Under the pieces are notes generated by a model. It had not been told where the DNA came from, did no database searches, and worked only from the letters and a program-made list of their open reading frames with translations. From assembly GCA_964187785.1 (NCBI GenBank), contig OZ076409.1:11968001-12032000 (forward strand): a stretch of DNA of 64,000 bases. Reading direction: 5' to 3'. Source of the DNA: Amphiscolops sp. MND2022 (taxonomy: Eukaryota). Positions 1 through 55,229 of the stretch are shown in pieces (position 1 is the stretch's first letter; the number at the start of each line of letters is the position of its first letter). A program made the translations under genes and the position numbers.

Positions 1-2
1 AG

Positions 3-3000
3 ATCTACAACCAACCTCATCTCTATTTCTACAACAATTCCAACCCAAATGATTCAAGCAAAGAACCCGATTCATATAACGATGGTCGAAATCTCAACCT
101 AGCTCTGACCAAGGCTCTGATAGACCCTTGGCAAACTAAAAGGACTACCAAGTTGGCGGTTCAGGAAGACCCCGCGCAAGACTCTTCTCAAGACGGACCT
201 GTGGTCACCCTCACTGCAACCGTCGAAGAACGCTTTGTGAACACGCTCATCTCACGAGACGGTGAACCCGACTATGTTCCGTTGACAACAAACCTCGGAC
301 TAAAATATAAAAGACGCATGCTCTATTTTCCAATGGATTTTGGCGAACTCACATTAGATGGCCTTATAGACACGGGAGCCCTATCTAGCGCGATCCCAGA
401 TGCTGATCTACGGAAAATCCGATTACTTGCCCCTCAATCAATAGTTAAAGAGGGCCCAGCTCCCAATTTCCAAATCATGGTTGCAAATGGACAACTGGAG
501 ACTCCCAAGAGCACTGTCGAACTCAAATTTGAAGTCGGGGACATCGAATTCCACGAGATATTCATAGTCATGGAAAAGCTCACAAGTCCATTAATTGGTC
601 TCTCATTCCTTCAACGGAATAATACCATCCTGGATATGCGACAGGGAGTCCTAAACTTCCCATTCTTTTCCATGCAATTGAAAACAGCGGATCACAAGTA
701 CACCAATGTCATGGAAACCCGTCAGTATACGCGAGGACATAACTATCCCGCCCAATGACAGACACATGGTTTCCATGTACTCCAATATATATGCAGACAC
801 TAATGTCACAGAAATCCTTCAACCGAGCAACGCCCTCACTGAGGACGGAGACATAGCCTTCTGCGCTGCTCTAGTCACACTGACTCAAGGTCAGGTTTCG
901 ATTCATGTGAATAATTTCACTGATCAACCCTATACCCTTAAACGGGGGTTGGACATTGCCAATTTCTCTGTCATGACGCCAGAGCAAATGAAATACGTCA
1001 AACCTATTGACGCTGTGACCACATGGCACCTTTTACAAGATAATCCAGAAAATGCTGCCTATTACGCCAGTAGTTTAATCAAATCTACAAAAACTGAGGA
1101 AGACCAAGGAAACTATTGGTTTCCTACTCCAGAGGAGCCTGGTGATCCCCAGCTCCATACTCCAATTCAGCAAAGAATCTTGAAGGAGTTAAAAAACCTT
1201 CAAGAGCTGGAAAAACTCAACCCTCAGGACGACCCTGAGTCCAGAACACAATTCATTGCTAATTTTGACTGGACAGACTCCACGTTACAACCAGACGAAA
1301 TTGCCCAAATTGAGGAGCTACTTGTCGAATTCCATGACATATTTGCAAGACATCGATTTGATATAGGCATGAACGAGGATTTCAAGGTCAAGCTCACACC
1401 CAAAGATGAATCCCCAGCCTATAGCCAAAGTCTTCCAACACCGATTAATCTCAAAGAAGACATTCTAGTCGAATTGGCACTATTGCATCGATATGGAATC
1501 ATAACAACGCTTCCATTCTCTAAATATGCAAGTCCAATCTTTGCCCAGAAAAAACCAAACGGCAAATTACGACTTTTGGTCGATCTTCGCAAAATTAATA
1601 ACCTCATCTCTGATGATTATATTAACAACAATCATCCTGTGAGTACCTTAACAGACGCCGCACATCATATGGCAGGTAAACGATTGTTCTGCAAATTAGA
1701 CTGTTCACAAGCGTATCACTGCCTACAAATGGCGGACCAGAGGTCCATTGAGATGCTTGCATTCAACTTTGCTAGCAGGACCTTCGCATACCGCCGACTG
1801 GCGCAAGGCCTCAGCAGAGCCCTTTCTGCCTTTTCAAGCTTTATGCGTGAATACTTGGACAAAGTGATCAAAGCTGACCAATGCGCAGAGTACGTCGATG
1901 ATATCGGAATTGCAGCAAACACGACTGAACAACTGATTAGAAACCTCCGAGCGACGTTTCAGTGCATCCGAAATGCAGGGCTCAAACTCACGATGCACAA
2001 ATGCCACTTTGGAGCCAAGGAAATTGACTTTCTAGGACGTACCATCACTCCTGAAGGAGCGCGGCCACAAAGACCTAGAGTCCAAAACTTCCTGGAAAAA
2101 ACCAAATTTCCCAAATCCAAAAAGGCTCTTCAGAGATACTTGGGATTTCTAAACTACTACCGCAATTACATCCCAAGGCTTTCAGAAAAACTCACACCAT
2201 TCTTCAAACTGCTCAAAAACGATGCCAAAATTTTGGTGACACCCAATCTGTTAGAACAATTCACCGAGATCAACAAAGCTCTTGACCGATGTTGTGAACT
2301 TGCACTCAAACAACCTCTGCCTAACAAGCAAATAGCGTTAATGACTGACGCTAGCTTCTCGGCAGCAGGTTACGCAGTTCTCATCGAGGACGATCCAAGT
2401 GAAAAGTATACTTCAACGCGAAAGTCTTTCGCACCTGTAGCCTATGGATCCAAGACCTTTAGTCCCGCCCAACTGAAAATGTCCATATACGCCAAAGAAT
2501 TCTTAGCAATTTTTTTCGCCTTCAAGGAATTTGGACACATCTTTTGGGGGACTCCGAAACCGGTGATAATCTTAACAGATAACAAGTCGGTCACTCGCTT
2601 TTTCCAAACCAAAATTATTCCACCAACACTGTGGAACGCGTGTGACTACGTTATGCAGTTCAATTTCACCATTGCCCATATACCAGGCAAAAACAACATC
2701 GCAGCTGACTATCTGTCTCGACTGGAGATCTGTCCTAAAGAAAAACTTATACTCCGCATACGAGAAGATATATCAATCACGCCCATTGAACTTAACGTCC
2801 AGTCATCCGGCGTTACTGAAGAAGACCAAATTTTTTACACTGATGAGGATGAAGAAACTGAAGAAGGAATCTGGCAACGTAAAAAGGAGGCTAGGTCTCA
2901 TCCGACAAACCAATTACCTGACATTTTCCGAGAGAAACTCACTGCACACAGTGGTGCTTCTTCCCAGATGACAACGCTGCAACTCCTGTCAAATAATACC

Positions 3001-4800
3001 ACCATGGCTATCGAGCAACGAAATGACGTGGTCTTACATCAATTACGGCTCAAACTGCAGAAGGAAGAATATTCTGAAACGATTCTACAACAGGATTCGC
3101 GCTACCGACATTACTGCAGTCAAATTGACCGTCTGTCCGTCCAGGATGACGTTGTCATCAGAGACTATTATGACGAAACGGGAACCGTTCAATACCACCA
3201 GGCGCTTTTACCCAAACACCTTGTGTCAGAACTACTCCACTCACTCCACGGAATGGCAAATAAACATCCAGGAATTTCCAAGATGCTTTATGAAATCCGT
3301 CAAAAATATTACTACCCTGGAATTGCAAAGATTGTCAAAAACTGGGTTCAAGGATGTGAGACCTGCATAAAAGACAAAAGAATCCAAAACCCATCAATAA
3401 CGCCTGAATTACTTAATTTGCCTGAATGGGATCTTGGCCCGGAAGACGCCCTACAAATTGACCTTTTACCTAACCTCCCACCGAGTGGGGGATTTGAAAA
3501 TGTCATTACAGCCCTGGACGTCTTCTCTAGATACCTGTTCGCCTATCCTGTAGTTGACGCTTCGGCCTCCAGTACAGCAAAAGTAATCATTGATATCATG
3601 ACGAGGCATTCATATTTACCAACAACTCTGATTACCGACAAAGGGTCAGCATTCACGTCCCGTCTAGTAAACGAGGTCGCAAAAATTCTAGGTATCCAAA
3701 TCAAATGTGCCACAACGAAGCACCCTCAGACGATAAGCAAATCAGAGAGAACTCATGCCAGTCTTAAGGGCAATCTTAAAATGGCTTCTGGTGAATACCG
3801 CCGCCAATGGCACAAATACCTACCATTGGCTGTTCTCAACTACAACACGACCTATCATTCAAGTCTGGGATGCGAGCCTTCCAGAATTTTCCATGGAAGA
3901 GTACCATATAATATTCTAGACCATCGGTTGGGCTTAAATCCCAACCCAAAGATCCTGCCAACAACCGATTTTGCTGAAGAATTACAAAGGCGCACTCAGA
4001 TTTTGATTGATAAGACCAAGAAAAACATCATGCAGTCGTACTTAAAGTACAAGGAATATTATGATCGTGAAGCAAAAGCAGCCCCACTACAGCAGGGAGA
4101 TTATTGTTTTTTACTTCAACCGCTAGCGGACAACCAGGGATCCAAACTTCCGTTTCGCGAATTCCGGTGGATTGGACCGTAAGTCATTGAAAAATATTTA
4201 CCGAACGAAAACTACATTGTCCGTAAACTTAGTTCCAATAAAACGCAAATTTTACACAGGATACGTCTACGAAAATACACTCCGAATAAAGAGTTACGTG
4301 ACGTCCGACCGGAAGGAAATTTGCAAGCCGATGATGAAATCGTCATGCCACAAGATGATCATTACATTATTTCTTGGGAAACAGAATTTGACGACTTTCC
4401 CCCAGCTCCGAACGTGAACAACCCTCCTGATGATTCTACGCCTAATTCAGATCGACCGGACGCTATAATCACAGATTTGGACCTTCGGTCCACGCGGTGG
4501 CAAGCAGATACTGACGCCGCCAATACTGAACCGCTAAGACGCGACGTGAATGACGCGGACCTTAAGTCCACTCGACGGCAGCAAAAAACTGATTCAGAAA
4601 TGGACGAAACTACTTCTAAAAGTCCCTCAGAAGCAAGAAATTTTGATTTTTTGAATTCTAGAGGGGAAGATACAATCGTGCCCGATTTTCTAGACTCTGA
4701 AAACGATGAAATGGTTGTAGGAAATGAAAGTCCCAGGGGAGGAAAATATAATCTGCGCCCCAACCCAACTCCAAACTTCACTGATGAATACAGATACTAG
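3..4800 (+). pseudogene. pol: Gypsy pol polyprotein (aspartic protease, dUTPase-like segment, RT, RNase H, integrase) with one frameshift (~718) and one premature stop (4180-4182)
   Basis: LIDTGA protease; LLVDLRKIN, LDCSQAYH, YVDD in RT; TDAS and TDNKS in RNase H; H-H-C-C zinc finger; QIDL/TDKG/ERTH integrase triad; GP(Y>stop) motif, after which the same frame continues to TAG at 4800. Confidence 0.95.
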
Positions 4801-5004
4801 TCAGAATAAGTAAATTAAAAGGGCCCGTTATTTACCTTCATAATCTCAATTATTTTCTAGGGCCTGATCTCACTATAAATGTTCACTGCTAAAAAAAGAC
4901 TAATGTCAACAAATATACATATACAACTACTAGAAAATAAATAAATGGATAAATGAAACGGTACTATAACACAAACAACTATAAGTGTACTAATGGTACA
5001 ATTA

Positions 5005-8000
5005 TCAATCCTTAGCAAAATGACGAATGCTTGAACTGGAGGGCAACTCGCTGTCTGATTGACGCCTCACAGGCGATCCTTTGGCACTGGCTGGCGGAAG
5101 ACTCTTGGAACTGCTGTTGCTTTTCAGATCTTTAAACCTCAACTTTCGACTTTCAGTCTTCCTCTTCATTGAGCCCGGACGTAAAGCAGCAAGAATTTCA
5201 GAGCGATCGAAGCGATTGAGGCTGTCCCAGGGGCTATACATGTCAGAGAAGGCAGTATTCCCGAACGTAGGTTCGAAGGAAAGGAACTTAGCTATTGAAG
5301 AAGCTGAAGTGAAGGCATCTATGCTCCGCCCCACATTAATAAAGAAGGATTGAACGGGCAGAATGGTGTCAATAAGTTTACTTTTGGGGTCATCTGTCCG
5401 CACTGGACCAAACTTCACGGTAGGCATACTAACATAACTCTCATCCAAACATAAACAGCTCAGCTTAAAGATCCGAGCAAGATGGGGTCTTGACTCTAAG
5501 GCAACATGATTGGAAATGTGAGTCACTGCATCCTGGATTATGACCCTTGGTTGGCCCAGATCAGGCATCTCTTTGCGGATCTCGTCAAGGAATGATAAAT
5601 ATTCCTCTGTATAGATGGACTCCGCGTCGGCTTGAAAGTAACCGCGAAGATGAAAGCTGCGGAAAAGATGCTTGAAACAATTCAGCGCCTGGCTAAGGGG
5701 GGAACGATACATAATGTCCAGATCAAAGGAGCCCAATCCTTTCACAATGGTGGAGGTCAGTTGTAAGTTGTTTTGGGCAGCATGGAAAAGGTAGGCAACG
5801 TAGCTCCTCCCAAGTCGCCCAAACTCTTCTTTGTTCTCTTTCACGAGTTTCGGAAGATTAGCCCGATTGCCCTTCTTGTCGCTTAATTCCTTTTCTGCCT
5901 TGACTTTGCAAGCCACTTTCAGTCGTTGGTCGAGCTTCGATCGGGCGATGAAATCGGGAATGGCTAAGGCTTTGGCATCCGACATAGCAATACCCAAAAT
6001 CCCTGACAGATCTGTTTCCTGTGGCAGACTTTTCGGCTTGATACAGCGCCTTCCTAGCTTGAAGAGGTACTGGCATAACTGCCTGTAGATATGGAATCCA
6101 TGATCCCGTCGTTCAGTCAGATGTGGCACAAAGCTCGTGGTATCTAAACATTTGCGTTCACTATGATTATCGAAAGCTCAAGAAATGATACGTACTACGG
6201 GTGGACTATACTTACAATCCCTGACCAAGCGATAGAAGAGTTCAAGCCGGCACAGAAACAACTCATCATGGATCATGGCTCGCTCTAGGTTCTGAGGCTA
6301 GAACAACAAAAGGAAAATTGAAACAACCGAAATTAGACTGAAGGTCAACGGGACGGCAGCGACTTACTTGTTTTCTCACTCCCATCATTTCATGCGGAGG
6401 TGCATGTTCATTCAGGAATTTGGTCACATCTGTCCAGTTAGCAAGCAGCTCCTGACACAGTGTTGGGAGAGTGGCGAGTTCAATTTGGCAAGTACGAACA
6501 GCCTGAACACAACAAGTTTATTAGTACCTTTGAAAGAGCCGTGGACTACAAGCCTAAAATGAGAGAGTCTAACCTTTGCCAACACTGGCGTCATCAAGGT
6601 CCAATCACAGTCGAGACTTCCCCCCAAGAAGATGATTAGATACTTGAGAACGGAGTGGAAGTCGATGCGTCCAAAGACGCTATAGCTTTCTTTATGCATT
6701 AGCCGCGCGATTGAAAAGTCCTCAAATCTGAGAGGGTGTTGGAGTCCATGCTTACTGTAAGGAGAACTATCTACCTTCTGGATCGTTTCCAGGCTGCAAC
6801 CGGAGCAACTGACAATGTTGGTGCCGCGTGAGAAAACTGCCAAAACGTCACTTATGAGGCTTAATTCGGCTGCCGACTGTCCCAGGACCCGGCCGGTTCG
6901 CTTCAGGAAAACTCGGCAGAGCTCGTCCTTTCTCCAGAAACGGATGAACACTAACAGGAAGACTCCTTGCTTGATAAATTCCAGCGAATACTCGCCCGCT
7001 GCAACTACATGGTCTCCAATGTCATGTATAGTTTGTAGGAACAGGTGGTGGAAGAGAGCCTAGAATGAAAACATCATATTTAATGCAGGTCAAAAGTAAC
7101 GATTACTGGGCTGGGGAAGACCTTAAGTCGATTTAACGGCAGGAAAATACTTACTGATAGCCGTTCTTTACTCCAGTCAAAGTCAGTGAAGAGCGACTGA
7201 TGGTTTACAACGACCCCAACATCCCGCCAGAGGTTCCTCAGGGTGCTGATATCGCCGTAGCTTCGCAAGTAGTTACCCAGAACTGACATCTGGACTCGAA
7301 CACGGTTGTCGGATGAAGAAGCCATGTAGTCAACTCCTTGAGCGTATTCGTCGTAGAACGGAAGCTTCTCTCCGATGTCCACGAGTTCTACCCCAATGAA
7401 CTTGGGTAATTCTAATTGAAGCTCGTAGGGGGTGAGAAGTCGTCCGTCCTTCCCCCTGACATGGTGTTTTATCCTTCCACTCACGGGGTCTTCTATGGCA
7501 AGATGCTCGTATCGCCACCTCTGATCTTTACGAAGATGACGTTCGGTGGAGTGGTGACGAAGGATCTCTCGAGCGCCGCGTCCATAAATTGATATATTGC
7601 CTTTACAGATTTGGCAATAAAATTTATACGGATTCCAGCGAGGATCAACTGGTCCGCTCACAAACGTCTTCGTCCACTCCATTCCTTTAAAGTATGCCTC
7701 TTTCATGATTTTACAGGCACGAGGCACCCGATGTCTGCTCTCTCCTTTGGGGCGAGTAGGCTTCTTGCTTTGTCTTCGGCGTGTTCCAGACTTAGTCATT
7801 TCCGATACTGCCTCCGCTTTGAGCGCGGACAAGGTTTGTCCTCCGGGGCTATCAGTCTGGGTTGAAGCTCCAGGTGACACAAGGTCAATTTGACGGCTTC
7901 CAGTCGGACCGGTTGGGGGAGGAGTAAAATGTTGACTCTCCAGGTCGGAATGTTCGTAAACATATCCAATACTGGCGAAATCATCGTCACTTCTGATTCC

Positions 8001-9265
8001 CCCACTGGTATCGCTTGTATGACCTGATGACAAACCAGATTGTGACCCGGCATAACTGGTATGAGAAATTGCTTTCTTCGACCTCGGAATGACGGCCGTC
8101 GGTGACCGCTGGGCTCCAAGGCTCAATCTGCTTGCTTGTTGTACCAAGCTTTCCATAGCTTTCAGCGACGATTTAACTGCTTCATCTGCTACAACTTTTA
8201 ACAAGTTACTCACTTGGCCCTCATTCAATGCAAGGGTAGGAAGCCCAGGAGACAATCTGATGGGGGTGGCCTCGTCAAAATACTCCTTTATCAAAGCGCG
8301 ACTACTAGCTGACAGTTGAGGGACTCGATGTGCTGATTCAGGGAAATCTACTGAGGTGTTGCTGGCTACATCACTCACTCTAAATACGTTAGCTTGGGCA
8401 GGTGCAAACAGGACATCAGCCACTGTGGACCCGACTAATCCTTCAGACTCTAACCCGGCGTCACTGGTTACCTTATCGGATTCTCTGTTCGCTGTTGGAT
8501 CTGTAAATCTGGGGGCTTCAAATTCCCCAGCGAACTCAGATCCAGCTTCAGAACTTGAGAGACCTTCCGTCCCGGCGGCGGCATCAGACAAATCAGTCCT
8601 TGGAGCACTCAACTTCACGCTCAGTCTTTGAACTTTTGCTTCGGAAGGCCCATATCGGGACTTGAGACTGCTTTTCAATAGTACTTTGGGAGAGTCCAGG
8701 AATGCAACCTCTGGCGCTTCGTCCAACTCCAATTCATCTTGGGTAGGGGAATACTGACCGGGCATCAGCTCCATCATGCTACTCTCGCTAAACTTCTTGT
8801 CGCTCCAGTCGTTCTGACTCGATGTACCAGTTTCTTGCGAACAGCCCAATTGTTCCCACTTTCGAGCGATGTAAGCCCCACAACTCTCATCAGTGCTACT
8901 ACTCTCAACGTTCCAGTTGCTGTAATAGCAGGAGGAGTGGCTTCTGTGTTGGAAATAGCCATGGGGGGATCTTGAGGCGTCACAGTGATGTTCCCCAAAC
9001 TTGTAGTTGCTCCCTCACTCACCAGACTGGGATCGTCTTCCACTACTCTCTCAGGATCATCTGACTTGTCGTCATAATCATTCTGGCCGTGAGTCATGGA
9101 CTTTACGGTGGGGAAATTATTGACAGTGGAAGAGGCAGTTACAAAGGAATCAGTCGTATCCATTTTTTCTTCTTCAGCGACCAATTGGAGAGGTTGGCCA
9201 TTAGATTCATCACCTAAACGGAATGAGATGAATAAACGCGGTTCACTTCCTGAATATGAATCCAT
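5005..9265 (-). CDS. Antisense 5-exon gene (~1317 aa), BED-like zinc finger, hAT-transposase-derived; exons 9265-7155 (one frameshift ~8900-9000), 7059-6574, 6502-6368, 6297-6216, 6143-5005
   Basis: Four GT-AG introns (7154-7060, 6573-6503, 6367-6298, 6215-6144; 70-95 nt; three GTAAGT donors; CTAAT branch-like sites in introns 2 and 3) join the minus-strand ORFs exactly in frame (phases 0,0,0,1). Contains FYCQICKGNISI...ILRHHSTERH zinc finger. Confidence 0.85.
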
Positions 9266-11314
9266 CTAGCCGCATTTAAACAAAATCTCCCGGAAGTTCA
9301 ATTGACACAATGTTCACGCTGATAGCAAACATTTCACGATGGAGGAAGTAACTTAGTTGGGATTATGAGCTCTGATCACGCCAAATTCTAACACTTTAAA
9401 AGAACCAACCTGATGCTGTATCCATAGTCGTTCAGCAAAATTGATGTGATCCAATTGTAGTTCGTGCAAGGAGAGTAGATTCAGTCGATACAACGACTAG
9501 TTTTCAAATTGCCTCGGATTGTTGAGGAACCAAAATTGTAGTGGTCTTTTCAGTGGACGCTGAGGAAGGGGATGTAAACTGGAGCTTCTGCTTCTCGAAG
9601 AGATTGTTAAACGGGCAATTTAGAATGAAATAGTATGGAGAAGTTTTGTTTTGTGATTAAATGTGACAGGAAGTTAACCAACTGTACATGGAAATGATGG
9701 TGAACTAAATGCCACCCCGAGTCAAAGAACTGCACTGGTTACATAGTGGACAATTTAGCCCGAAGGAACAGCATTTGAAAAGCAGATAATCAATGCGAAT
9801 GAGATTAAACTCTGTGGAAAATACCAATGGACCTAACGTCAAACGGACGGCAGTGCTATAATAGTCTCAGGATTTGGGGACAACCCAGCAAACAGAGCTC
9901 AAAATGTGGATTAGTGTTCAGAAGGAGCGTATTGAAAGAATAGATTGAATCTATACAATTAGAAAAGTACCAAATAAAGAACTCAAATATACTCAGCAAC
10001 TTCTAAAAGAAGCATATTACAAATGATGAATGCAGCTGATATCAAAAGGCAAGTTAAATTAGTGTTCAAATGAAGTAATAGCCGTTACTAGCTGCCAATC
10101 ATAACTATTATTTACTCAAGCTGACTGTACATCCATTTGACGGCAACTTATCACTTACTTATTAACTATTGCGTAATAAGACAATAAGTCCGCTCCACTA
10201 CAAAGGTATACATGTACTCATTTACCTGTCAAATTAGACCGGAATTACAGCCATCAACATTTACACTTATTGTGACGTCACACGCGTTGAATGACCACCA
10301 GTCAGCCGGACGGCATTCAATTACTTACATGTACGCGACTACTTTGAGGAAGTTAGAGCACACCTATTTCGTGACGTCACACGCGCTGTATGACCACCGG
10401 TCAATTGGACGGCATTAATTTAACTATTTGTACTCACCCCTTTTGACTGAGACTTCACGTCCCGCGGACTGCATCAAAGGATGAACCTGAAATTCCCTCA
10501 TTTATTGAACGTTCAGTCCAGTTGACAGCACGGATTCCTTGACTCACACACTGAAATACTATGAAGATTTAAACCAAATTACTGGTTTTGTCGCATAAAA
10601 TTCACTTTATACGTGAAATTTCATGTCCGTAAAGAAGTCGTGGCTACATACAAAATGATTAAGGCCCTAATCCTACCAATTTGTTGGAAAATGAGCCTTT
10701 TGGTGTTTTCTTGATCAATTGAGCCTGCCAGTGAGATTTCCAAGGAACATCATTTTATTTCCACTTAGTTGGATCATTAGTCCAGCTTCACTCTTGCTCA
10801 TTATGTTTCTTTTTCCTTCAATTATTATCAGTTACCATTTTAATAGATTGATTCTTTTCTATTTACCTGATTTCATTCTTTCATTTTCGTTCATTCATCA
10901 ACACCTTTGATTGGTTGACACGTCGACTGCCGTCAAGCGGACCGACGGTCTTTGAACAAGTAGTGTTGACAAATAATATTAACGGTAAACCCTTCACTGA
11001 CTTGTTAATACTGCTTAGCATGCCTTTGAAGAGAAAAGCAAGCTACCCTCAAGTGGTACTTGACGAGTGGTATTCTCAACTCATTCATAGATTGTTGATT
11101 ACCAACTTATTTTACTCGACCCTGAAAAGGAAAAATAAGGGAAAGTTTTTGGGGGGTTTCCCTCCACCAGTTCCCGCGAAAATTAGGATTTGACCAAAGG
11201 TCAGTCAGACGGCACAATTTCATTCATCCAACTATTTCCTTGAGGATCAGTTCCAACGTTTCAAACTCAGCCAAGATTGCAAAGAAAATATTACTCTCCC
11301 GGTTCAGTAACGCG

Positions 11315-12138
11315 ATGTCATTGCAATTCTCCTTAGACGAAGTGGCTAGACCTTTAGTGAGCCTTTCGTATCAATCCTCTGACGAGGATATGGGGATTGA
11401 TTCTGTGTCAGTACCAGACCATCTTGAAAGTCAGGATTCCGATGACGACATTCAAGTCCTGGCTTGCTACCACGAGAATGCTCCCTTCCCTCCCCAGTTA
11501 GCAGCAGGGAGAGCAATGACCACCGAATTGACCAATTCTCTGAACGATCTCAATCTACCAAAAGAGGACTTCACAGACACAATTAGCACGTTCACCGAAC
11601 CTTCGCAGGAGTTGCTTGACTGGTGTGTTGGTGCCCCCCCAACGACTTATGTAACCGTTATGGCCGAGATCACCCAATCACTCAATGCAGTCAGCTCAAC
11701 CCAATTCGCGATTCGCCTTGGTCACAACCACTGGAAGATCAGAGACCCATCAATGATTACAGCAGCCAACTGCCACAAACCTACGAATCGGACTCATGGT
11801 ATAGGAGTGCACACATCACTGGATTGGGCATCAGTATTAGTGGCTCCTGTGGGCAGCCCAACGAGATATTCCACAGTGGGTGCGTGGTCTGCGGGAAATC
11901 ATTCGAGGACATTCGGACAGAAATCACTCTTGGATATCTGGAGCAGACACATGTGCCCGGTGAGACCTACGAACAAAGGACTGCACGTAGTAATGCTTTC
12001 CAAGCTGGTATGAACGCTGGGTCGTTCATACTAGTCCCCCGGGGAGTGTCGCAGGCTGCCGCCTGTGACGGCGTGGCTTACCAAATAACCCCGGAAAATG
12101 ATCTCAACAACCCAGGACCAGGTGTCCTGCCAATATAA
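11315..12138 (+). CDS. Accessory ORF inside the LTR (~274 aa if one C is restored in the C7 run at 11634-11640); unknown function
   Basis: Two overlapping ORFs (11240-12013, 11623-12138) joinable at a homopolymer; acidic N-half; C-half with HSGCVVCGKS; GC-richer than flanks. Confidence 0.55.
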
Positions 12139-12917
12139 AATAAACACTTAGAACTCATGTGATATACTACTATATATTGTTGCATTACTCAATACACAAT
12201 AATCATAATCATTGGGTGCTTAAATTACATGTGATTCACAATTATTTCAATATGTTGACCTAAGGTCAGTTTGACGGCAATCACTCACTTTAGTATACTA
12301 AAGTGTCAAAACGTTAGCGAAACACCCTACTCATTTGCAAATTATTGTATCAGTGCTAATACAAAACCTGTTGCAGTTAAAATACCAATGTGAAGTTGAC
12401 GTAGTTAATATCAACTAGTAAAGAGTAAAGACAATGCATTCACCTGCCACTATGTTGCTGCCGGGTCGACGCGCAGTACGCTGTACCCTTGTCCAAATAA
12501 ATATAGCAAAATGTATGTTTTTGCCGCCACGTGGACGCAAGGTCCACTCAGCCGATAAAAGTTAGATGTTGTTCCCCAGTGCATGAAATGTTGCTTACTA
12601 GTATTAGCATACTTTAACATAACTGCCGCTTCTATTTATAGAATTTTGGATTAGTGACGTAATATCTCTAGTGACGCCATGTTCTATTTATAATATCTGT
12701 GATGTCATAGTTAGATTGATCGCTATTTTTATAATGATGTCATTCCTATTTTTACTTAATGACACTCAGAATATTGAGTGTCACGGATGTAAAATTATAA
12801 ATAGGAGGATATTGTTACTAGAAATTCATTCAATACCTGCTTTGTGATACAATTGACACTGTTGATACAATTCTGATCATTCGAAATTTACTGTTGAAAC
12901 GTTATTTTCTTATTGAC

Positions 12918-13560
12918 ATGCCTTCTACCAGGAAGCAGAAAGCTAAAGAAAAGCGACCAAGACAATCTGACGTAATGTCAGACGTAGAAAACCTTGATAT
13001 AATGCTTGGAAGTTATTCCAGAGATGCACAAGTAGAGCAAGGTAACATTAGTGACGTTGAAGGGGACTTTGAGTCTGATAGACGCCAACAGAGCACCGAC
13101 TTAGTCGAAGGAAACTTCAGGTCACTCTTGAATACCAATGTAAGTGAAAATAGTGAAATTACGGCTGAAACTATGAGAGCAATTAACTCAGAAATTTCAT
13201 CGCAAATGTCCAGAAAATTAGATGAAATGAAATCAGATTTGAATTTGCAAATAATGGATGCTATAAACTCAGCAATTCAGGAAAAGGTACTTCCCTCCTG
13301 TGAAAATACGTTAAATTCGGTTAAAACCACTCAAAACACAAAATGGGACCTTCGGTCAGATGGACGGCATTCCGGTTTAGTAGGACAGTCTGCCTCCAAT
13401 AGTGACCCTCGGTCAAGTGGACGGCACCAAAGCGCACAAGCACCGTTAGACTTGAAATCAAGTGGAAATCGGCCAAAATCTAACCTTAAAGAGAGTAACC
13501 TTTACAATCGCTCCAGAGATAGTTCCGTAGATTCTATTGAGAGCGATGTCGGTTACGACA
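12918..13560 (+). CDS. Gag-like N-terminal ORF starting inside the LTR, cut at the LTR end
   Basis: MPSTRKQKAKEKR basic start, coiled-coil-like ISSQMSRKLDEMKSDL, open up to the terminal CA; TATA about 120 bp upstream. Confidence 0.6.
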
Positions 13561-13915
13561 CTAATCTTTTCATATCGTCGATGTCCTTCTTCATTTCTAG
13601 ATTGTTAGACACACACTTGAGACGATCATCAACATTTTCCAGACACCAACCACAGAACCACTTGCAGGCATCGATTGCTCCGATGACATTTAATTGCTTC
13701 TTGGACAAACCCGAACACTCTTCATGAAACCATATAGAGCACATGTCACACATTATTGCTAATTGACCATTTAGCACCTCCACATCACACTTCTTGCTAA
13801 TGCTTTGCGATGCCTCGTCATTTGTTGTACAATCTGCATTGTGATCCCCCCGATCTTCGGCCGATCTTTGAAATCCACTAGGGCTGCTTCTTATCGGCAC
13901 ACCACCATATCTCAT
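13561..13915 (-). pseudogene. PHD-finger ORF fragment (LINE ORF1-like or host), truncated by the LTR element
   Basis: C...IMCDMCSIWFHEECSGL...WFCGWC followed by a coiled-coil-like segment; cut at 13560. Confidence 0.7.
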
Positions 13916-33789: not shown

Positions 33790-35750
33790 CTGGTGACAGT
33801 GATTCGACACAATCTGCGGACGCTGTTTTGGGTGTTTCGAACCTATCCTTTATGAACACTAACTCAAAAAGAAACTGTAACTGGTTATCAATTTGTTGAA
33901 ACGCTGGCCGCTGGGTCTTCAGGAGAGTGGTGACAAAGTTATAACATGTAGCTTAGACATGTTGTTTACAGTTTTCCGGTCAGTTATTGAAGAATGTCTG
34001 CCCCGGTTTTTCAATGCATTACGAAGCTCTGATGGTTCCATGGATGGTTTTCCACCTGGGACACTTCTTCAAATAAGGAGGACAATCGTTTGAAAACATT
34101 AACACCGAATGGATATCAACCAGTTAAGGAACGGGCCGCAATAATTACCGATGAAGTGGAGCAACAACTGTGGAACAGATGCATTTTAGGCTCAAATAAT
34201 CCCAAACAGTTGTTGTGGACAGTTTAATACATTGTTGGAAAGCATTTCGTCCTACGTTCGAGACAAGAACACAGAAACCTTCGGTTTGGTTCCGAATCAC
34301 AATTAGAAGTATTTAGTATACCCCGCTTGAAAAGGTGGTATACAATGAAACAGTGTCGAAGAGAAACCCAGGTGGTATGCGGAACATCAAACAAGAACCA
34401 AAAAGTATGGAAATAATGGCCACCAATACCACTCAACTTTGTCCAGTTGAGATCATCAAGTTTTACAAAAGTAAAATTCCAGCCTGGCCCAAAGACTTCT
34501 ACTTTGTACCCAATCCAAATTTCGAACCAGGTTGTTCTATTTGGTTTTGAGATCAACCAGTTGGAGAAAAACAAGCCGGGACCGGCCCAAGTCGGCGCCA
34601 TATCCAAGGCTCAAAAATAGCAAAAAGACTTCCAAGTGTCAAGTATTCGTTTACAGTAGTCGAAAATCAAAAATTTTTCGATTTTTTTTTTGAAAAAATT
34701 ACTAAAAAAATGGACCGAGTGGCGCGCCGGGGCTGGCGCGCTAACGTCTCACAATGCCGAAAAACTGAAAGGGGGGACCCTTTGAGGTTTTTCAACATTC
34801 ATTCTGTCGCAAAACATGAAAAAACTGAAGAAAACAAAAAAAAATTATTTTCGGAAAAAAATCTCACAATGCCGAAAAAACTGGAAGGGGGGACCCTTTG
34901 GGATTTTTCAACATCCATTCTGTCGCAAAACATGAAAAAATTGAAGAAAAAAATTTTTTTTCATTTTCGGGAGAAAATCTCACAATGCCGAAAAAGACTG
35001 AAAGGAGGAACCCTTTGGGATTTTCCAACATCCATTCTGTCGCAAAACATCAAAAAAATGCAGGGGGGACCCTTTGAGGAAAAAAAATTTCGAAAAAAAA
35101 TCCGAAAAAAAATGTCTCGCAGTGCCGAAAAAAAATTGAAAGGGGGGACTCTTTGGTCTCGCCCGGTATGATATGTTACGCGGAAAAACAGGTAAAACCA
35201 TTTTGGTCCAGTTCGCTAGGTCAAATGGTGCTATTTGACACCATAATATTTTGTAGAACTTTTAAGAACTATTTTGGTCAGTTCGTGTGGATAGAAAAAA
35301 AAAGAGTCACTATAAAAGTCGCGTTTCACTTCATGAAGCGCCGACTAAAAATTTTGTGAAATCGTAGGAGATATATCAATCATTGCTGGTTGGGATCATA
35401 ACCTATTGTGGTCTGGCCATTCGCTGCGAGCGTCAGCAATTACATCGCTGTCAGAAAACAATTTCCCAGATTCCAGGTTTCAAAAACTTAGTGGTCGCCG
35501 AAGTGTTCGAGCATTGAGCATATACAAGCGGTCAAAAGATCTTAATGCGTCAATTTGTAATGCATTGGCGAACCCAGTTGTGACCTTGCTGCATGCATCT
35601 ACTGAAGTAGCAGCATCCATTGATCGAATTGAAGGAACGTCGAAAAGCCGACGAGGAATAAAAAAAACGAAAACAAAAAGATTATTATGATGACTTGAGT
35701 GACGATGATTTCGACCACGAACTAGTAAATGCAGCTGAAAAAGTGGAATA
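33790..35750 (+). pseudogene. Crypton-like (DUF3504-type) tyrosine recombinase remnant split by a Helentron-like insertion
   Basis: EQQLW..LGSNNPKQLLWTV, LRSRQEHRNL, YNETVSK.NPGG, CPVEIIKFYKSK, QPVG, GHSLRAS, SG(R)RS..LSIYKR. Confidence 0.8.
34571..35347 (-). mobile_element. Helentron/HINE-like element, copy 2, with ~115-bp internal tandem repeats
   Basis: Same termini as copy 1, reversed; internal unit TCTCACAATGCCGAAAAA...GGGGGACCCTTTG; inserted in an A-run. Confidence 0.75.
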
Positions 35751-41017: not shown

Positions 41018-43270
<2,253 letters not shown>

Positions 43271-44437: not shown

Positions 44438-44928
44438 GCAAACCGGGACCGCCCAAGTTGGCGCCATATCTAAGGCTCAAAAATAGCAAAAGGACTTCAA
44501 AATGTCAAAGTATTGGTGAATTGGGGACCCTTTTATGAGAAAGAAAATTTGAAAAAAAGTCTCACAATGCCAAAAAAAGCTGAAAGGGGGACCTTTTGGG
44601 ATTTTTCAACATACATTATGTCCCAAAACTCCGAAAAAATTGAAGGGGGCCCTCTGGGGAAAAGAATTCCCGAAAAAAGTCTCGCAATCCCGAAAAAAAC
44701 TGAAAGGGGGACCCTTTGGTCTCGTCCGGTATTGTATGTTACGCGGGAAACCTTTTTGGTTCAGTTCCTTGAGCCAACGGGTACAATTTGGTGTCTTCTT
44801 GAAATTTTGTAGAACTTTTGGGGTAGAACCATTTTGGTCACTTCAGGTGTATCGAAAAAACTTTTTAAAAAACACTTACGAAAAGCCATGACTTTAGTCG
44901 ACTCTTTTCTCTAGAAAAGCGCCGACTA
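44438..44928 (-). mobile_element. Helentron/HINE-like element, copy 3
   Basis: Shares both termini and the internal repeat with 34571-35347. Confidence 0.7.
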
Positions 44929-48232: not shown

Positions 48233-51200
48233 TGTGGTAGCGATCATAAAAGAGCAACCATTGTGTTGACAAAATACCTGCTCCGTTGAACAATTTGTTC
48301 AACCAAAAGATTCAACACCACCAAATGGTCTGAAACAATACACAAGAAAGTTACCACCGAATACTCTTTTTAAACAAGCTTAGACCACGCGATCACATGG
48401 CGCTGTGAGCTGAAAATCAGCCCGTTGCGGGCATTCCCGTATTTTGGCAAGATGCATCAGCAGAGAGAGTTTATGAGTGGAGCCGGTGGATCGAGCTTTT
48501 CGAGGCCACATTAATGGCAAAATCTTCAATCTCCCTAGACGAATTAACCAGAGAAGCTTCAACAAATGCCAGAAGAAAAGAGCTGATGGGCGGGTCAGAA
48601 GAACAGATAGCCCAGAAAAAGGCAGTTAGTTTCCTTTACAATGCGCTCGGAGAGGCGGCAAGGAAAACGCTTTTGGACAGAAAGCCCAACTTGGACATAA
48701 AAACCATGAACTTAGACGAACTGCTAAAAGAATGCCAAGATGCTTTCCACAAGAAGTGAAACAGACTCATGGACAGACACAAATTCTTCAACCGCAAACA
48801 ATTAGAAGGAGAGACCCTAGAGCAATTTCGGCATGCACTAAACGGGCTGGCATCAAATTGTGATTTTGGAACCCAGCAAACCAGCCTAGTTTACGACATT
48901 TTTTCTCCAACATGAAGAATGTGGTGGTCCAAGAGAGGCTATTTACTGAGCCTACGGATAACCCCGAGGAGGCATTAAATTTTGCCTTTGCTTTCGAACA
49001 GGGCGCGCAGCAGAAAAAAACAATTTGTGTGAAAGCTGCAAATATCAAAGAAGTTATTTGTTCGTGTTCGCAGTGGAGAAGTACAATGAATGTTATAAAT
49101 GCGGTGAAAAACCCTTTTTAATGGGACATCAAAAAGTTTGCAAAGCAAAAGGCGTAGAATGCAGAAATTGCGGAAAAACCGGCCACTACGCCAGAATGTG
49201 TAGACTAAAGATCTCAGAGACAAAGAAGAATAACTCTGCGAACCGGAAGGTAAATGCGATTCGCACAGAAAGCCCGTGGAGCAGTTCAGAAGAAGAATCT
49301 GCCGAGGAAGTAGAAAATCTACACATAGATGGAAAGACGCCAAAGAACAAGCCGTTCGTGTTGAAAGGCAAATTCAACAGAAAACCGTTCCACGCGCTTA
49401 TTGACACCGGGTCGCCAATCACGATCTTCACCAAGGCCCATGCAGAAAAGATATTCGGAAAGCACTTTAAGATGAAACCGCTCGACAAGGAAGAGAAGCA
49501 TGTCGACTATAGCAGCAACAAGATTGAATTCTTGGGTGCAATTATCGGCCAAGTCGAATCCGGGGCGAAGAAAATGGATAAAGTGCGCGGATTAGTTGCG
49601 GAGAATGGGACGAGGACGGAGATAGGGAGAGATTGGCTGAGAGGCCTCGGAATCAAATTAAAGACGGAAGGTGGTAAGTGTCACAGTCCGCTCCCGGACT
49701 GGAATGCGGTTGTAGACGAGTCGGCTACGGAAGAGGCCATGGTTGTACCGCAAAACTCACAAAAGGTATTTTGGATTGTAAATTCTCGTAAGATTGAAAA
49801 AACTTTGACTGGAAGTACAAAATATTCGTCTGCCTTGCGCAAATCCTGAATAAGAAATGAAAATAAGAAATAAAATGATCTAAAATATTTTCACTCATTT
49901 CCGGCAAGACGTCTTTGCCACGTCAAAATAGTAACATTCGCCACCTGAAAACTAAATTAAGACACGTTTCAAAACAATGAGAGCATAAGCCAATCTAAAT
50001 GAAAACATATCCAAAATCATCTCCAAGAGGGACATCAATCAGATCCAAAAAAGAAAATACACTGAGATGGCACGCCGGAGAAACTAAGCCTTTTCTAAGA
50101 AAGGCAGCTTAATTACTCTTTGAACAGCAATTAGTATGGTTTAGGACGTCAATATTAGGACGAGCAAACGAAGCGGCGGAAGAAATAAGTATACATGTAT
50201 CTTTGTCGACGCAGACAAGTTTGAAGGTATACCAATTGACGTCACTGCCTCGCCTCGCCTATACGTACCAAAAACTCATTCCAATTATCCGCCTATACTA
50301 ATTGAATTACTAGAAATCATTTCAATTTACCGCCATTGTGACGTCACTACGCCGGCAGCTAGTTAGAAAATCGTTCCTAAAATACTTGTCAGCATTACGT
50401 CACACTAGTCAAAATCTCATTTCGGCCAAGAAAACTCGTCAACATGACGTTGACAAGTTTTTGAAATTAGACGAATTAAGTTTTTTCACCAAATTGATTG
50501 AGGAATTCACCGTTTTAGGCCGTACTTTCAGAGGAAATAACATTTACGATTCAGCCTAGGATATAAAATAAATATTCCACTAACGTTCCTAGCTAAAGAA
50601 ATAAAATGTAGGCTTTGCGATAGTTCCTCATAAATTAAATTTTCGTTATTCTAAACGCGTTAAATGGTCTAAAAACAATGAGTTTCTTTTCTGATCCTAG
50701 TAGGTAGAGTCACAGTTTATGTTTTTCTTTAATGGATAAATAACCATATTTTCGTGACAAAAAGGTATTTTCTTTACCCCCAACAATGATGTAAACTGTA
50801 AACCTAATATTTGCAAACATTTGTTCCAGTCTATTTTATATGACGTTTGCTAACATGTTGGTTTTGTATTCAATGTACTCTTTAAACCACCTAGATTTGT
50901 AAAACCCTATTTTTACTGAGTCCTGTGAATTGTGTGCTATCTCATAAGTGAGTCTGCGGATAGAAGGCGCTCTCATTTCTTTTACTACTGTTCAAGTTTG
51001 AAGTTTTCATGTTTCGTTGAATTTAATACAGTAACTTGTCGCATTTGTCGCGTCAGGACCAAATTGTTGATGATGAATGTATTTAATAGTACAATTCTAA
51101 TATTATTTCCAACGTAAAAGAGTGAGTCCAAATCCATAAAAAAATTGTCCTAGCATCGCTTAAGCAATCACAGTTTGGAAATTAGTCATATTTTTCCTCA

Positions 51201-54200
51201 AGTTGAAATTCAAAATCAGGTATTAGTTGTTCACGTCGGCGTCATCTCAGCGTCAATTTCCCGCGAACCAAACAGTAAAACAGGGAATCATTTCCGGTTT
51301 GATAGACTGAAGTAATATCTACCTCCTGTTTGAGAGGAGGCAAAAGGACGCCGGGATGAAATGATATGTTCGTGATAAGTGACTACTATCGAAAAATTGT
51401 AGTCGTGTCTTAAAAGTTGACGAAATGTCGATGCAATTTTGGGATCTTCATGATTTTTTCATCGACAAAACAGGAAATGACTAATTGTTCGAGGAAATTA
51501 GGGATTATGGTCGTGATCAAATGTTGCTGGGAGGGTATAAATACGGTAGAATTTAATGATTAAGGGACTCAGTCTTTTTCAATTGTGAAAATCAGTTATC
51601 TCATAACTTGCTCAATTTTCCAATTCTCAATCTAAAACTTTGTTGAAAACACTTTGAAAGTAAATTGAATTCTTCAAGATCAATTTCTCTCTACTTCGAA
51701 GTGTCTACCACTAGAAGCCAGAAAAGAAGAAACAATCAACAAGAAGTTGTTGAAAACGTAAGGGAAGGTTTTGTTTCGCCAGTTATAGCGGAAAACTTTT
51801 GTCCCTTGGACCAAGAAGTAGACGTTGTAGGCCCGTCAAAACCAAAATCTCCAAGAGTAGAAGGTAGCTTCTTAGAAAACTCAAGAGCCTCTCTAAAAGA
51901 AGAGATCACGTCTCAGATCAAGAATCTCCTTGTAGAGTCCCAGAAGGAAACGTTAAGACTTCTCAAGACGGAAACAAGGGAAAACATTTAAAAAAACGTT
52001 GAAGAAGAGACAGAGAACGAAACTAGGAGTTTCTACAACCATACAAAATCAGTTAGAATTAACTCTACCCAAAACAACGACCAGTGTAATAGTCGTAACA
52101 GTAAATGTGAAATTAATTGCATAAGCGAACCGACGAACTTGTTTAAAGAATTTGAAGAACTATTTCCAGGAAAAGGACGATTAGAAGGTCACGAAATAAA
52201 CGCGCAATTTAAAGAGAACTGCGTACCGAAACAACAAAAGGGACGAAGGATACCGCTCCAACTACAAAATTCGGTTGAAAATGAAATCAAAAAATTGATC
52301 AAAAAGGGACATATTGAGAAAGTCAACGAGATAAAAGATGACGTTTTCATACAACCTACAGTTATTACAGTCAAAAAAGACAAAAGCATAAAGATCGCAT
52401 TGGACGTAAGAATTATTAATGAAATCATAAAGAGGGACAAATATCAAATGCCAAACTTAGACGATTTAATGTGTTCATTAGCTGAAGCGATCACAGGTGA
52501 CGGATCTGGAGAAGTATGGTTCCCATCAGTAGATTTGAAATACGCGTTTGGACAAGTTCTTTTAAACCCTAGTTTAGCAAAACATTGTAATTTCGCAATT
52601 GTAGGCGGTAAGGCCAGCGGTATTTACCGATTTTTAACAGAATTTTACGGGCTAACAGTAATGCCCACCGAATTTCAAAAAATAATGGAAGAAATTTTAT
52701 TTAATATTGCAAATGTTTACGTTTTTATAGATGACATTTTAATAGTAACAAAGGGAACAAAAGAAGAACATGAAGAAAAAGTTAGAGAAGTTTTTTAAAA
52801 AATAGATAGTAGAAAATTGCAACTAAAGGAAGATAAATGCAAAATTGCAAAGAACGAGATCGAATGGCTCGGATTTGACATATCAGAAAAAGGGGTGAAG
52901 ACACACAATGAGAAAATACAGGGTATATACGGAAAAATGAAACCGAAAAACTTGACAGATCTCAGATCGTACCTCGGGGCAGTGAATCAGTTGATAAAAT
53001 TTATACCCGGACTAGCCCAGCTAACCGTTTAGAGATTTGTTAAAAACGGACGGAAATTGGGAGTGGAAAGAGAAACATGATATCGTTTATGATCAAGTAC
53101 AAAAAAGCCTCCAAAACATAGAAAAACTGTCACATTTTAACAGAGAAAGCAAATTGCGAATAATTTGCGACGCCAGCCACCAGGGATTGGGCGCACTACT
53201 GCTACAGGAAAAGGGCGAAATGGAGTGGGAACTCATATCTTGCGCTTCAAGATATTTGAGTAACTACGAAATGAAATCTTCTACGAATGAATTAGAACTT
53301 CTCGTCTTTGTCTGGGCAGTAGAACATTTCCGTAACTACATATACGGTGCAAAATTTGAAGTGCGAAAAGAACGCTGTACGCAATTTAATTAAAACTTCA
53401 AAGAACGTTCCGGATAAACAAATTGTTCAGTCGCAAAATTTGAAAACTTCACCCATTCAATCGATAATATCATCAATTGAGGAAAACATCTCTTCTACAT
53501 CTACTGAGCATTTACCCGAAGTTAAATTTCTAAAAGTAAAGTCATTTAAGGAAATAAACGACATTATGTTAATGGCAAATTACCAATCTGATTCTGGATT
53601 ACAAAATGTCAGAGAGGCAGTATTACGCCGAGATGTAAATTTCCTCAGAAAGAAGAACAAATTGTTCAAGCCAGTATTCAAAGATCTAAGAGTGGATCGA
53701 GAACTAGTATTCTTTGAGAACAGGCTAGTTATTCCCCGTGACATGAGGCAGGCAGTTCTAAATAGTATCCACAGTGGACACCCGGGACGTGATGCTGTGT
53801 TAGGATCCGTAGATGAAATTTGGTGGCCTCAAATCCACAGACAAATTGTGGCGATTGCAAAAGCCTGCAAAACTTGCCAAAATGCAGGTAAGAACATTAA
53901 AGTTATTGAAAGACAAAGTAAATTTGGAACTATTCAATTGAAAACAAAACAAGTAAACGAAGAAGTAGCACTCGATTTTATGGGACCATTCGCTGGCGCA
54001 CCCGAATATAAAAAATATTTACTTGTAGCCATAGATCAATTTTCCGCATATCCGACCTTAAAACTTGTCAAAAACATCGCAATGAAAGAAGTAGCAGATT
54101 TCCTACGGAAATATATTAGTGACAATGGAACTCCGCAAAAATTAAGAACGGATCAGTCTACGGTATTCATGGGAAATGAGTTTAGACAGTTCCGAAAAGA

Positions 54201-55229
54201 ACTAGGAATGCGGCACGTAGTCTGCCCCATATATGATCACCGGGGAAACGGAAAAGTTGAAAGATTGGTGAGGACAATAAATGAGAGGCTAAGAGCGAAT
54301 TCCGAAGTACTAACCGAGAAACAAAACAAATTGTTTTACGAACTAATAAGTGCGCTAAAAACTAATAAGGGAAAAGAAGGAAAATCTTCCTTTGAGCGAC
54401 ATACAGATAGAAAACCAAACACTGTAACATCGATAATTAAAAAACTGTACAAAGAATTAATTGATTTAGAATTCGACAGAACTGTGGATCTGGAAAAACT
54501 GGAGGAATTTCCCGGAGATGATGACAGCACCACATTTGTACGAAACCGCCAAAGAAAGGGAAAACTGGCAGGACTATTCAGGAAGCGAAAGGGGGAAAAT
54601 CACTGGCGAAGCCAGCCACACCATCAAATTTGTGCCAGCCGAAAGGACCAATGAGATTGTCCTATCCAAAAGAGAAGTGGCCACAGGCGAATAGAAGGCG
54701 AGAAAACAACAGAAGCCCAAGAAAGCCAAAAACTACGTGATGGAAGAGATCGATAAGGAGAAGAAACAGCAAACAGCCCAGGTCTTCGCAGACCTAGAAG
54801 AAGACGAAAGAAACCGCAACCAAGACACTGCCAACGATACTTCAACTGTAGAGGAACGGGCCAGAAGGGCCAGGAAGGCACCAGATCGATACGGTCTTCC
54901 TGTGTACATATGCGGAGTGTCAAAACCAAAATAAACTCTCTCTAGTTGAAACTCTTTAGTAGTGACATTTTATTAACTTGCTTACTTCATTAACCTTGTA
55001 CATTATGTTCTTGTTACTTGTAGTGTAAACGAAAATTCCCAACCGTCAATTGGCGGCGGGGGAATGTGGTAGCGATCATAAAAGAGCAACCATTGTGTTG
55101 ACAAAATACCTGCTCCGTTGAACAATTTGTTCAACCAAAAGATTCAACATCACCATATGGTCTGAAACAATACACAAGATAGTTACCACCGAATATTCTT
55201 TTTAAACAAGCTTAGACCACGCGATCACA
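48233..55229 (+). mobile_element. Full-length but disrupted Gypsy LTR retrotransposon; 165-bp LTRs at 48233-48397 and 55065-55229
   Basis: TG...CA LTRs differing at 4 of 165 positions; TSD CTCTG; PBS TGGCGCTGTGAGC (tRNA-Ser-like); PPT GGCGGCGGGGGAA; gag CRNCGKTGHYARMC, LIDTGS, FIDD, CDASH, integrase HSGHPG...CKTC, DFMGP, TDQ, VERL. Confidence 0.97.
49679..52100 (+). mobile_element. 2422-bp solo LTR nested in pol between protease and RT; carries gag-like ORF start (~51701-52100)
   Basis: TGTCAC...GTAACA ends; TSD GTAAG/GTAAA; removal restores the host frame EGGK-CEINCISEPTNLFKEF; TGACGTCA sites and TATAAATA near 51536. Confidence 0.9.

Follow-up and report, generated by a model that had tools for sequence, protein, structure and literature searches.

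Introduction

Accessory genes separate 'complex' retroviruses from simple retrotransposons. HBZ of human T-cell leukaemia virus 1 (HTLV-1) is a spliced antisense coding gene in the 3' part of a retroelement, and its product is a small bZIP protein that is nuclear and regulatory. Here we analyze a 64,000-nucleotide stretch of the genome of Amphiscolops sp. MND2022 (contig OZ076409.1, positions 11,968,001 to 12,032,000, forward strand; hereafter the window, with positions counted from its first nucleotide), in which a five-exon antisense gene lies between pol and the 3' long terminal repeat (LTR) of a Ty3/Gypsy retrotransposon, on the strand opposite to gag-pol. The best explanation of the evidence as a whole, and one that we consider highly probable, is that a large clade of ~16-kb Ty3/Gypsy elements has this gene as an integral accessory gene, of which the segment studied here holds a defective copy. 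Unlike HBZ, which starts within the 3' LTR, the gene described here is 2.8 kb away from that LTR and overlaps no sense gene, and there was no bZIP family among its Pfam matches.

Antisense accessory genes have been described for plants and one fungus, with function unknown (PMC7264820, PMC11963269). In the plant elements Retand, Grande, RIRE2 and PvRetro13, antisense open reading frames (ORFs) termed aORF-3R occupy the interval from pol to the 3' LTR, most copies of a family retain them, and the pol-to-LTR region of Retand measures 2.9-6.6 kb (PMC11963269, PMC7264820). The present gene is like aORF-3R in its position, its antisense strand, its retention in most copies and its long pol-to-LTR region (7.2 kb in the window element); it is unlike aORF-3R in having four spliceosomal introns, ~1,314 codons, an apparently animal host and a sense gene before the LTR. 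The word 'intron' is absent from both plant papers (PMC7264820, PMC11963269). TRP28 (Transposase_28, PF04195) gave no match at E ≤ 0.1 for the exons, nor at E ≤ 1 in 25 + 37 homologues, and a search for Retand-like tandem arrays yielded only a 28-nt array. The gene brtn, reported by Zhao et al. (2011), lies antisense between pol and the 3' LTR of Boty-like Gypsy elements of Botrytis and Sclerotinia (cited in PMC7264820), and shares with our gene this arrangement within a non-plant Gypsy element. The bdelloid rotifer elements Juno, Vesta and TelKA carry family-specific accessory ORF3s that are shared between lineages by recombination; these are sense genes, expressed from spliced sense messages, that encode env-like proteins or GDSL or DEDDy enzymes (PMC5408684). 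The rotifer elements are likewise animal LTR elements with accessory genes exchanged by recombination, and differ in the sense orientation of these genes; PMC5408684 is without the word 'intron' and uses 'antisense' only for small RNAs. No case of a spliced antisense gene in an animal Gypsy element came up in our literature search; this is not proof of absence, and subscription journals, Repbase and Dfam lay outside the search. We conclude that the gene is an animal-type counterpart of the antisense accessory genes known from plants and fungi.

The example is large, intron-rich and clearly selected, it sits in an apparently animal genome, and it has thousands of candidate copies; it further offers a second accessory gene, a conserved candidate promoter and natural swaps of one cassette among gag-pol backgrounds. 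The use of such a gene to a retroelement, the passage of introns through reverse transcription and the movement of modules between lineages could be tested through this case. There is also a risk for genome annotation, in which the exons, with their resemblance to a host gene, could be recorded as such.

The host element

Self-comparison of the window plus 10 kb to its left identified the LTRs as one 1514-bp direct repeat, 98.9% identical between its two copies, of which the 5' LTR spans bases 2935-1422 to the left of the window and the 3' LTR spans 12047-13560. Its hallmarks are TGTCG..CGACA ends, a 5-bp target site duplication (TSD) of CTAAT, a TGG-led primer binding site (PBS) after the 5' LTR and a GGGGAG run before the 3' copy. 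Pfam matches above cut-off (gag-asp_proteas, RVT_1, RT_RNaseH, Integrase_H2C2 and rve) follow the Ty3/Gypsy order of protease, reverse transcriptase (RT), RNase H and integrase. The pol ORF at 682-4182 has an in-frame stop at 4180-4182 that splits off the integrase end, and continues as an ORF at 4183-4800; the gag ORFs, translated from locus L011, contain two CCHC motifs and one in-frame stop. With LTRs, TSD, pol order, PBS, polypurine tract (PPT) and CCHC gag all present, the element is a Ty3/Gypsy LTR retrotransposon. Its length is ~16.5 kb, and its layout is LTR, gag, pol (sense), the five-exon antisense gene, a variable spacer of ~2 kb, ORF3 (another accessory gene, on the sense strand, whose end lies in U3), and LTR. 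The first-pass annotation of the window, made from the sequence before any database search, had set the 3' LTR near 9570, with the PPT there and the gene start ~300 bp away; this placement does not hold, as the LTR starts at 12047 and the antisense ATG is 2.8 kb off. The parts of the element within the window, other than its accessory genes, are as follows.

1..13560, (+): Ty3/Gypsy element, right-hand 13.6 kb; the 5' LTR and gag lie at 2935 to 1 bases left of the window
3..4800, (+): pol region (protease-RT-RNase H-integrase), from Pfam matches and the ORF table
12047..13560, (+): 3' LTR, 1514 bp; TSD CTAAT at 13561-13565

Two minor features of the element were also recorded. A sub-threshold dUTPase match (E 0.005; 17 bits vs a cut-off of 22) lies at 724-975, residues 15-98 of the pol ORF, between protease and RT; rotifer and basidiomycete elements carry dUTPase at this position. 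Within the LTR there is an ORF of 269-301 codons that runs past the LTR end (12822-13727, (+), in the window; 5' LTR counterpart at L011:7840-8649), for which no Pfam family was found.

Exons, introns and reading frame of the antisense gene

The ORF table gives five minus-strand ORFs in the segment (8774-9265, 7080-9014, 6424-7059, 6266-6517 and 5005-6177), and four GT..AG introns splice the minus-strand ORFs in frame, exactly at the junctions that the first-pass annotation had named. From 9014 the spliced frame stays open for 1233 codons, until it reaches the stop at 5005. The frame of the ATG at 9265 differs from that of 9014-7155 and ends after 163 codons in the window copy. At 8913-8914 a G-run reads GG in the window and GGG in the other aligned copies, that is, a 1-nt deletion in exon 1; in the other copies, which have the extra G, exon 1 is uninterrupted across this position. 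Because of the deletion, the window copy of the antisense gene is defective and encodes no full protein. Of the ~1317-aa product first proposed, the four junctions and the frame open from 9014 stand, and the figure itself does not, since it ignores the 1-nt deletion by which exon 1 is frameshifted. A fifth intron bridging the two exon-1 frames (GT at ~9019, AG at ~8920) was considered and rejected: the phases mismatch, and the other copies show a plain 1-nt difference.

7155..9265, (-): exon 1; ATG at 9265-9263; broken by the 1-nt deletion at 8913-8914; N-terminus kept in distant homologues
7060..7154, (-): intron 1, 95 nt, GT..AG; homologue P0017 joins exon 1 to exon 2 here
6574..7059, (-): exon 2, 162 codons
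6503..6573, (-): intron 2, 71 nt, GT..AG
6368..6502, (-): exon 3, 45 codons
6298..6367, (-): intron 3, 70 nt, GT..AG
6216..6297, (-): exon 4, 82 nt
6144..6215, (-): intron 4, 72 nt, GT..AG
5005..6143, (-): exon 5, stop at 5005-5007 included; predicted all-helical domain, then a low-confidence tail

Copies of the element in the genome

A search of the 1.07-Gb genome (1929 contigs) with the DNA of 5005-9265 returned 13 near-full-length places at 96-100% identity, the window's own included, together with one further copy in two pieces and many places at ~70%. Ten close copies were retrieved whole, a set that leaves out those at C1:24.9 Mb, C3:64.9 Mb and C4:83.8 Mb. All ten have pol sequence upstream and the antisense gene downstream, and eight have an LTR pair of ~1.5 kb that is 98.7-99.9% identical. 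Perfect 5-bp TSDs, all different, flank the window copy and six of the seven other copies with refined ends, and the TGG-led PBS is identical in all seven of the latter. Because the copies carry different TSDs, the complete unit, introns included, has integrated repeatedly, and it has done so many times with its introns in place. From established retroelement biology, such introns persist because only the antisense transcript presents them as introns, and the sense genomic RNA, the template of reverse transcription, is not spliced at them; the earlier statement that antisense introns survive retrotransposition fits this repeated whole-element integration with intact GT..AG.

The arrangement extends beyond the close copies. 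In both of the diverged families, L032 and L033, exons 5 to 1 come after the integrase end, on the opposite strand and with the same block structure; in L034, whose pol is the closest (88% DNA identity), the gene is decayed, with ~45% protein identity, and its exon ends are at the same places. The antisense gene is present in 13/13 elements examined (window, ten close copies, L032 and L033) and also in L034, so that the collinearity of pol, gene and LTR, which had been put forward as a check, is found in 10/10 close copies, in 2/2 diverged families and at the closest pol relative.

Genome-wide match lists comprise the best-scored subset of first-look candidates, and the co-occurrence counts from them are lower bounds. 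Exon 5 as a protein query gave 7699 first-look candidates, the best 109 of which were scored; all of these are at least 72% identical and 92 of the 109 are without a stop. For ORF3 (protein query) the best 141 of 6954 candidates were scored, and for pol (DNA query) the best 39 of 9353. At least 43 of the 109 listed exon-5 matches have a listed ORF3 match, at a median of 4.6 kb further along the element strand, and at least 22 of the 39 listed pol matches have ORF3 downstream (at 6.4-7.9 kb in 21 and at 11 kb in one).

These comparisons bear on the idea that the segment is an unrelated transposon or host gene that inserted once, as a nested event, into this Gypsy copy. A foreign origin would suit the base composition of the segment, with a GC content of 0.47-0.50 vs 0.43-0.44 in pol and an opposite GC skew, and also its 98-99% identity in elements with different gag-pol. 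Its place and orientation, however, are the same in every lineage examined, down to ~45% protein identity, and the pol-to-ORF3 spacing is constant at 6.4-7.9 kb in 21 of the 22 listed pol matches with a listed ORF3. Nor are there signs of independent insertion: no TSD of its own was found around the antisense-gene segment, and the best pair of inverted repeats near its borders, 15 nt at 87%, is at chance level and lies inside the conserved block upstream of the ATG (see below). With neither terminal inverted repeats (TIRs) nor a TSD around the segment, a nested insertion is not supported, and we put its probability at virtually nil.

A younger insertion was observed in one copy, C3b (locus pair L028/L029), in which ~6 kb with 854-bp direct repeats, a nested LTR element, sits inside exon 5.

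Splice-site conservation and selection

Splice sites and codons were compared in a 12-copy alignment that excludes C3b (exon 5 interrupted), L034 (too decayed for codon alignment) and C6 (LTR ends unrefined). All eight splice dinucleotides, GT..AG, are kept in 12/12 aligned copies, including families that are only ~70% identical in DNA, and identity to the diverged families C and D is 67-84% in exons and 42-73% in introns. Because the dinucleotides are kept throughout and the exons are more conserved than the introns, the four introns are, on the evidence of these comparisons, real and more than chance. A complete spliced ORF of 1301-1314 codons from the conserved start is present in 7/12 aligned copies.

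By the Nei-Gojobori method, the ratio of nonsynonymous to synonymous substitution (dN/dS) of the antisense gene is 0.13-0.19 for the deeper pairs, those with dS of 0.04-0.09, which indicates purifying selection on the exons; the comparison with family C yields a dN of 0.18, with saturation at synonymous sites. When pol and the antisense gene were compared for the same copy pair, dS was 0.088 and 0.089 and dN/dS 0.042 and 0.131, respectively; the two share their history, and the antisense gene is ~3-fold less constrained than pol. The gene evolves under purifying selection along the element lineages. The proposal in the first-pass annotation that it is an integral accessory gene is borne out by its collinearity in all lineages examined, by this range of dN/dS and by the lack of flanking TIRs.

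The same data speak to the idea that RNA is all that counts in the antisense unit, for example as a supply of double-stranded RNA or as a self-limiting regulator, and that its reading frame is incidental. Non-coding antisense retroelement transcripts are known from micropia and TART (PMC7264820). Here, however, such a role alone would have to coexist with constraint that is specific to codon phase, shown by a dN/dS of 0.13-0.19 and with synonymous sites saturated at a dN of 0.18, with a 1,300-codon frame intact in 7/12 copies and with 92 of 109 listed last exons free of stops, and we find it very improbable.

Upstream conserved block

Directly upstream of the antisense ATG lies one further feature.

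9301..9470, strand unset: conserved non-coding block, candidate promoter or 5' untranslated region

Between families, this block of 170 nt is 83-92% identical, as against 65-67% for exon 1 of the same families, and the sequence beyond it, the spacer at 9471-11300, is not conserved between lineages. A scan of 4500-13700 against Rfam gave no match at E ≤ 1, and RNA folding z-scores of the block (+1.0 and +1.5 on the two strands) indicate no structure. This suggests that the block is a control region at the DNA level, a candidate internal promoter of the antisense gene. Transcription would start from the gene's own promoter in or near 9301-9470 and not from the LTR. Such an arrangement would be like that of Grande gene23, which is driven by a promoter of its own, located upstream, and has a nuclear product (PMC7264820).

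Transcription from the 3' LTR, as initially proposed, loses its basis because the LTR starts only at 12047, 2.8 kb and the sense ORF3 intervene, and the conserved block adjoins the ATG. In an HBZ-like arrangement, the 3' LTR would supply the promoter of the antisense gene, and ORF3 would be spanned either by a long leader or by splicing from a non-coding exon upstream. The antisense promoter of the HTLV 3' LTR provides a precedent (PMC7264820), and an AG found directly before the ATG in all four aligned families would be a possible acceptor. Set against these points are the distance from LTR to ATG, which is 2.8 kb and not 300 bp, the presence of a conserved sense gene between the two, and the contrast between the unconserved spacer at 9471-11300 and the conserved 170 nt next to the gene. 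We regard this arrangement as quite unlikely and favor the internal promoter.

The spacer that separates the antisense gene from ORF3 is lineage-specific, and the window copy shares it only with its sister copy C12; it contains two 76-nt direct repeats (10272-10347 and 10371-10446; 76% identical), each with GTGACGTCAC.

Cassette exchange between lineages

Comparison of the window with copy C6 revealed abrupt changes in similarity along the element: gag-pol is ~80% identical (pol dS 1.69), 4520-4965 is ~55% identical, 5032-9458 is 98-99% identical, and the 1.8 kb after 9458 is unalignable. Copy C8 is a three-way mosaic that combines parts of the window and C6 types, and L034, the closest pol relative of the window, has a gene only ~45% identical. 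Because a near-identical gene sits beside diverged gag-pol, the cassette 5032-9458, comprising the gene and its proximal upstream region, has been exchanged between lineages whose gag-pol differs by ~20%. The comparisons of this cassette with copies C6, C8 and C12 point to frequent recombination between element lineages, and the exchange would fit recombination between co-packaged RNAs.

Encoded protein

The protein of intact copies opens with an acidic region of ~480 residues in which Ser, Thr, Pro and Gly are abundant; next comes a basic cluster and after it one zinc finger, C-x2-C...H-x4/5-H. The Pfam family zf-C2H2_ZN292 was matched in 14 of 37 members and stays below its cut-off (18.8 vs 27 bits), and no Zn2Cys6-like or DUF3716-like domain was found. 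Exon 2 is predicted to fold in the order strand-strand-strand-helix-strand-helix, weakly resembling half of an RNase H-like fold, and exon 5 is modeled as helical. No acidic triad is conserved in exon 2, where one position is E or Q and the end of strand 4 reads SGC; because no such triad is visible, the product is probably not an active nuclease. Foldseek gave no match in the PDB at E ≤ 0.001 for either structure model, and BFVD gave none for the exon-5 model. In the ESM Atlas, the first matches score 0.84 and 0.89 and are leads only; the nearest clusters, at 0.84 only, carry zf-BED, and exon 5 is set beside generic helical-repeat proteins.

From these features, the product would have ~1,314 residues, with an acidic, disordered N-terminal half, a basic patch, a C2H2/BED-like finger, an RNase H-like beta-alpha core and a helical domain. 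It may bind nucleic acids in the nucleus and serve the element in trans, either by regulating transcription or in the choice of integration sites.

The order of zinc finger, RNase H-like core and large helical domain is possibly common to this protein and the hAT transposases (Hermes, PDB 8edg and 2bw3). We therefore weighed whether the antisense gene descends from a hAT-type DNA transposase that was captured by an ancestral Gypsy element and kept as a DNA-binding protein. This concerns the origin of the gene and is compatible with its being an integral accessory gene. Unlike in hAT transposases, the matches here are weak, and no hAT Pfam domain, DDE triad, TIRs or 8-bp TSD were found. All scores are within the chance range; no hAT Pfam family was present in any of 25 + 37 members, and Dimer_Tnp_hAT in particular had no match in 25 exon-5 homologues at E ≤ 1. 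The Atlas neighbours of exon 5 are generic helical-repeat proteins, and neither a conserved acidic triad nor TIRs are visible. The hAT-like reading is a lead, not membership, and descent from hAT is a tentative possibility toward which we lean less than away from it.

A more inclusive picture would present this Gypsy clade as a 'complex' retroelement with two accessory genes, of which the antisense one is ancient, derived from a hAT-like DDE transposase, codes for a sequence-specific DNA-binding factor, has a conserved internal promoter and is traded as a cassette; as a combination this is speculative and, on balance, unlikely. If it were true, a retrotransposon would have domesticated a DNA-transposon gene and carried spliceosomal introns for long through reverse transcription, and the DNA-binding factor might steer integration or drive the element's own transcription.

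Homologues in public databases

A full HMMER scan found 635 public proteins that match exon 1 at E ≤ 0.001; the homologues looked up (clusters of ten) are from the European Nucleotide Archive (ENA) only. In alignment A2, the N-terminus of the antisense protein is also conserved among homologues, and a GTN codon stands straight after the exon-1 end in 15/15 unspliced ORF-type homologues, with Val-Ser in 13/15, as a conserved GTRAGT donor would give when read as codons. Homologue P0017 has exon 1 joined to exon 2 precisely at the junction, continues into intron 2 and looks like a partly spliced transcript or a copy that lost intron 1. Queries with exon 5 or with exon 1 residues 230-620 found no longer relatives, which is weak evidence of absence.

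Points against the interpretation

Several observations weigh against an intact, spliced and protein-coding accessory gene and were considered together. Among the matches listed, only 1 of 39 pol matches has an exon-5 match adjoining. The frame is broken in 5/12 aligned copies, the window's among them, and the close pair C2b-C3a has a dN/dS of 2.7, a value that comes from 20 changes and that we read as decay after insertion. P0017, a 2588-nt contig, may be a genomic copy without intron 1 and not a transcript; splicing, the transcription start and the transcribed strand in the host are predictions from the sequence itself. Both structure models have a mean predicted local distance difference test (pLDDT) score of ~60. 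Pfam searches with all exons gave no family above cut-off, and profile searches of PDB sequences gave no match for alignment A1 and, for A3, only the low-complexity SV2A at E 0.028. Because no Pfam family reaches cut-off and the PDB profiles gave nothing meaningful, the function of the protein is something that we can only infer. An integral accessory gene, present here as a defective copy, nevertheless remains the reading that we consider highly probable.

ORF3, a second accessory gene

The interval from the antisense gene to the LTR holds another conserved accessory gene, which we call ORF3.

11315..12138, (+): ORF3, sense accessory gene; crosses the PPT and ends ~29 codons inside U3 of the 3' LTR

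ORF3 is 267-274 codons long (intact example at L017:5483-6304); the window copy carries a frameshift, and 5/10 copies have the gene complete. Between two types, the proportion of nonsynonymous differences (pN) is 0.28 vs 0.81 for synonymous differences (pS). There are at least 141 matches to ORF3 in the genome, and no Pfam family was found for it.

Other features of the window

The only clear host gene in the window is represented by two exons at 41728-42255 and 42659-43270, (+), which we take to be from an actin gene; comparison of this gene (41728-43270) with other actins is the basis on which the host appears to be an animal. Other retroelement remnants, with protease-, RT- and integrase-like ORFs and unrelated to the studied copy, lie at 48962-54654, (+), and 59913-61310, (-). 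A cysteine-rich ORF of 120 codons at 13553-13915, (-), just outside the 3' LTR, may belong to the gene or element that was the insertion target of the Gypsy copy. A 91-nt repeat family forms two short tandem groups, at 34734-35057 and 44548-44758, ~9.6 kb apart.

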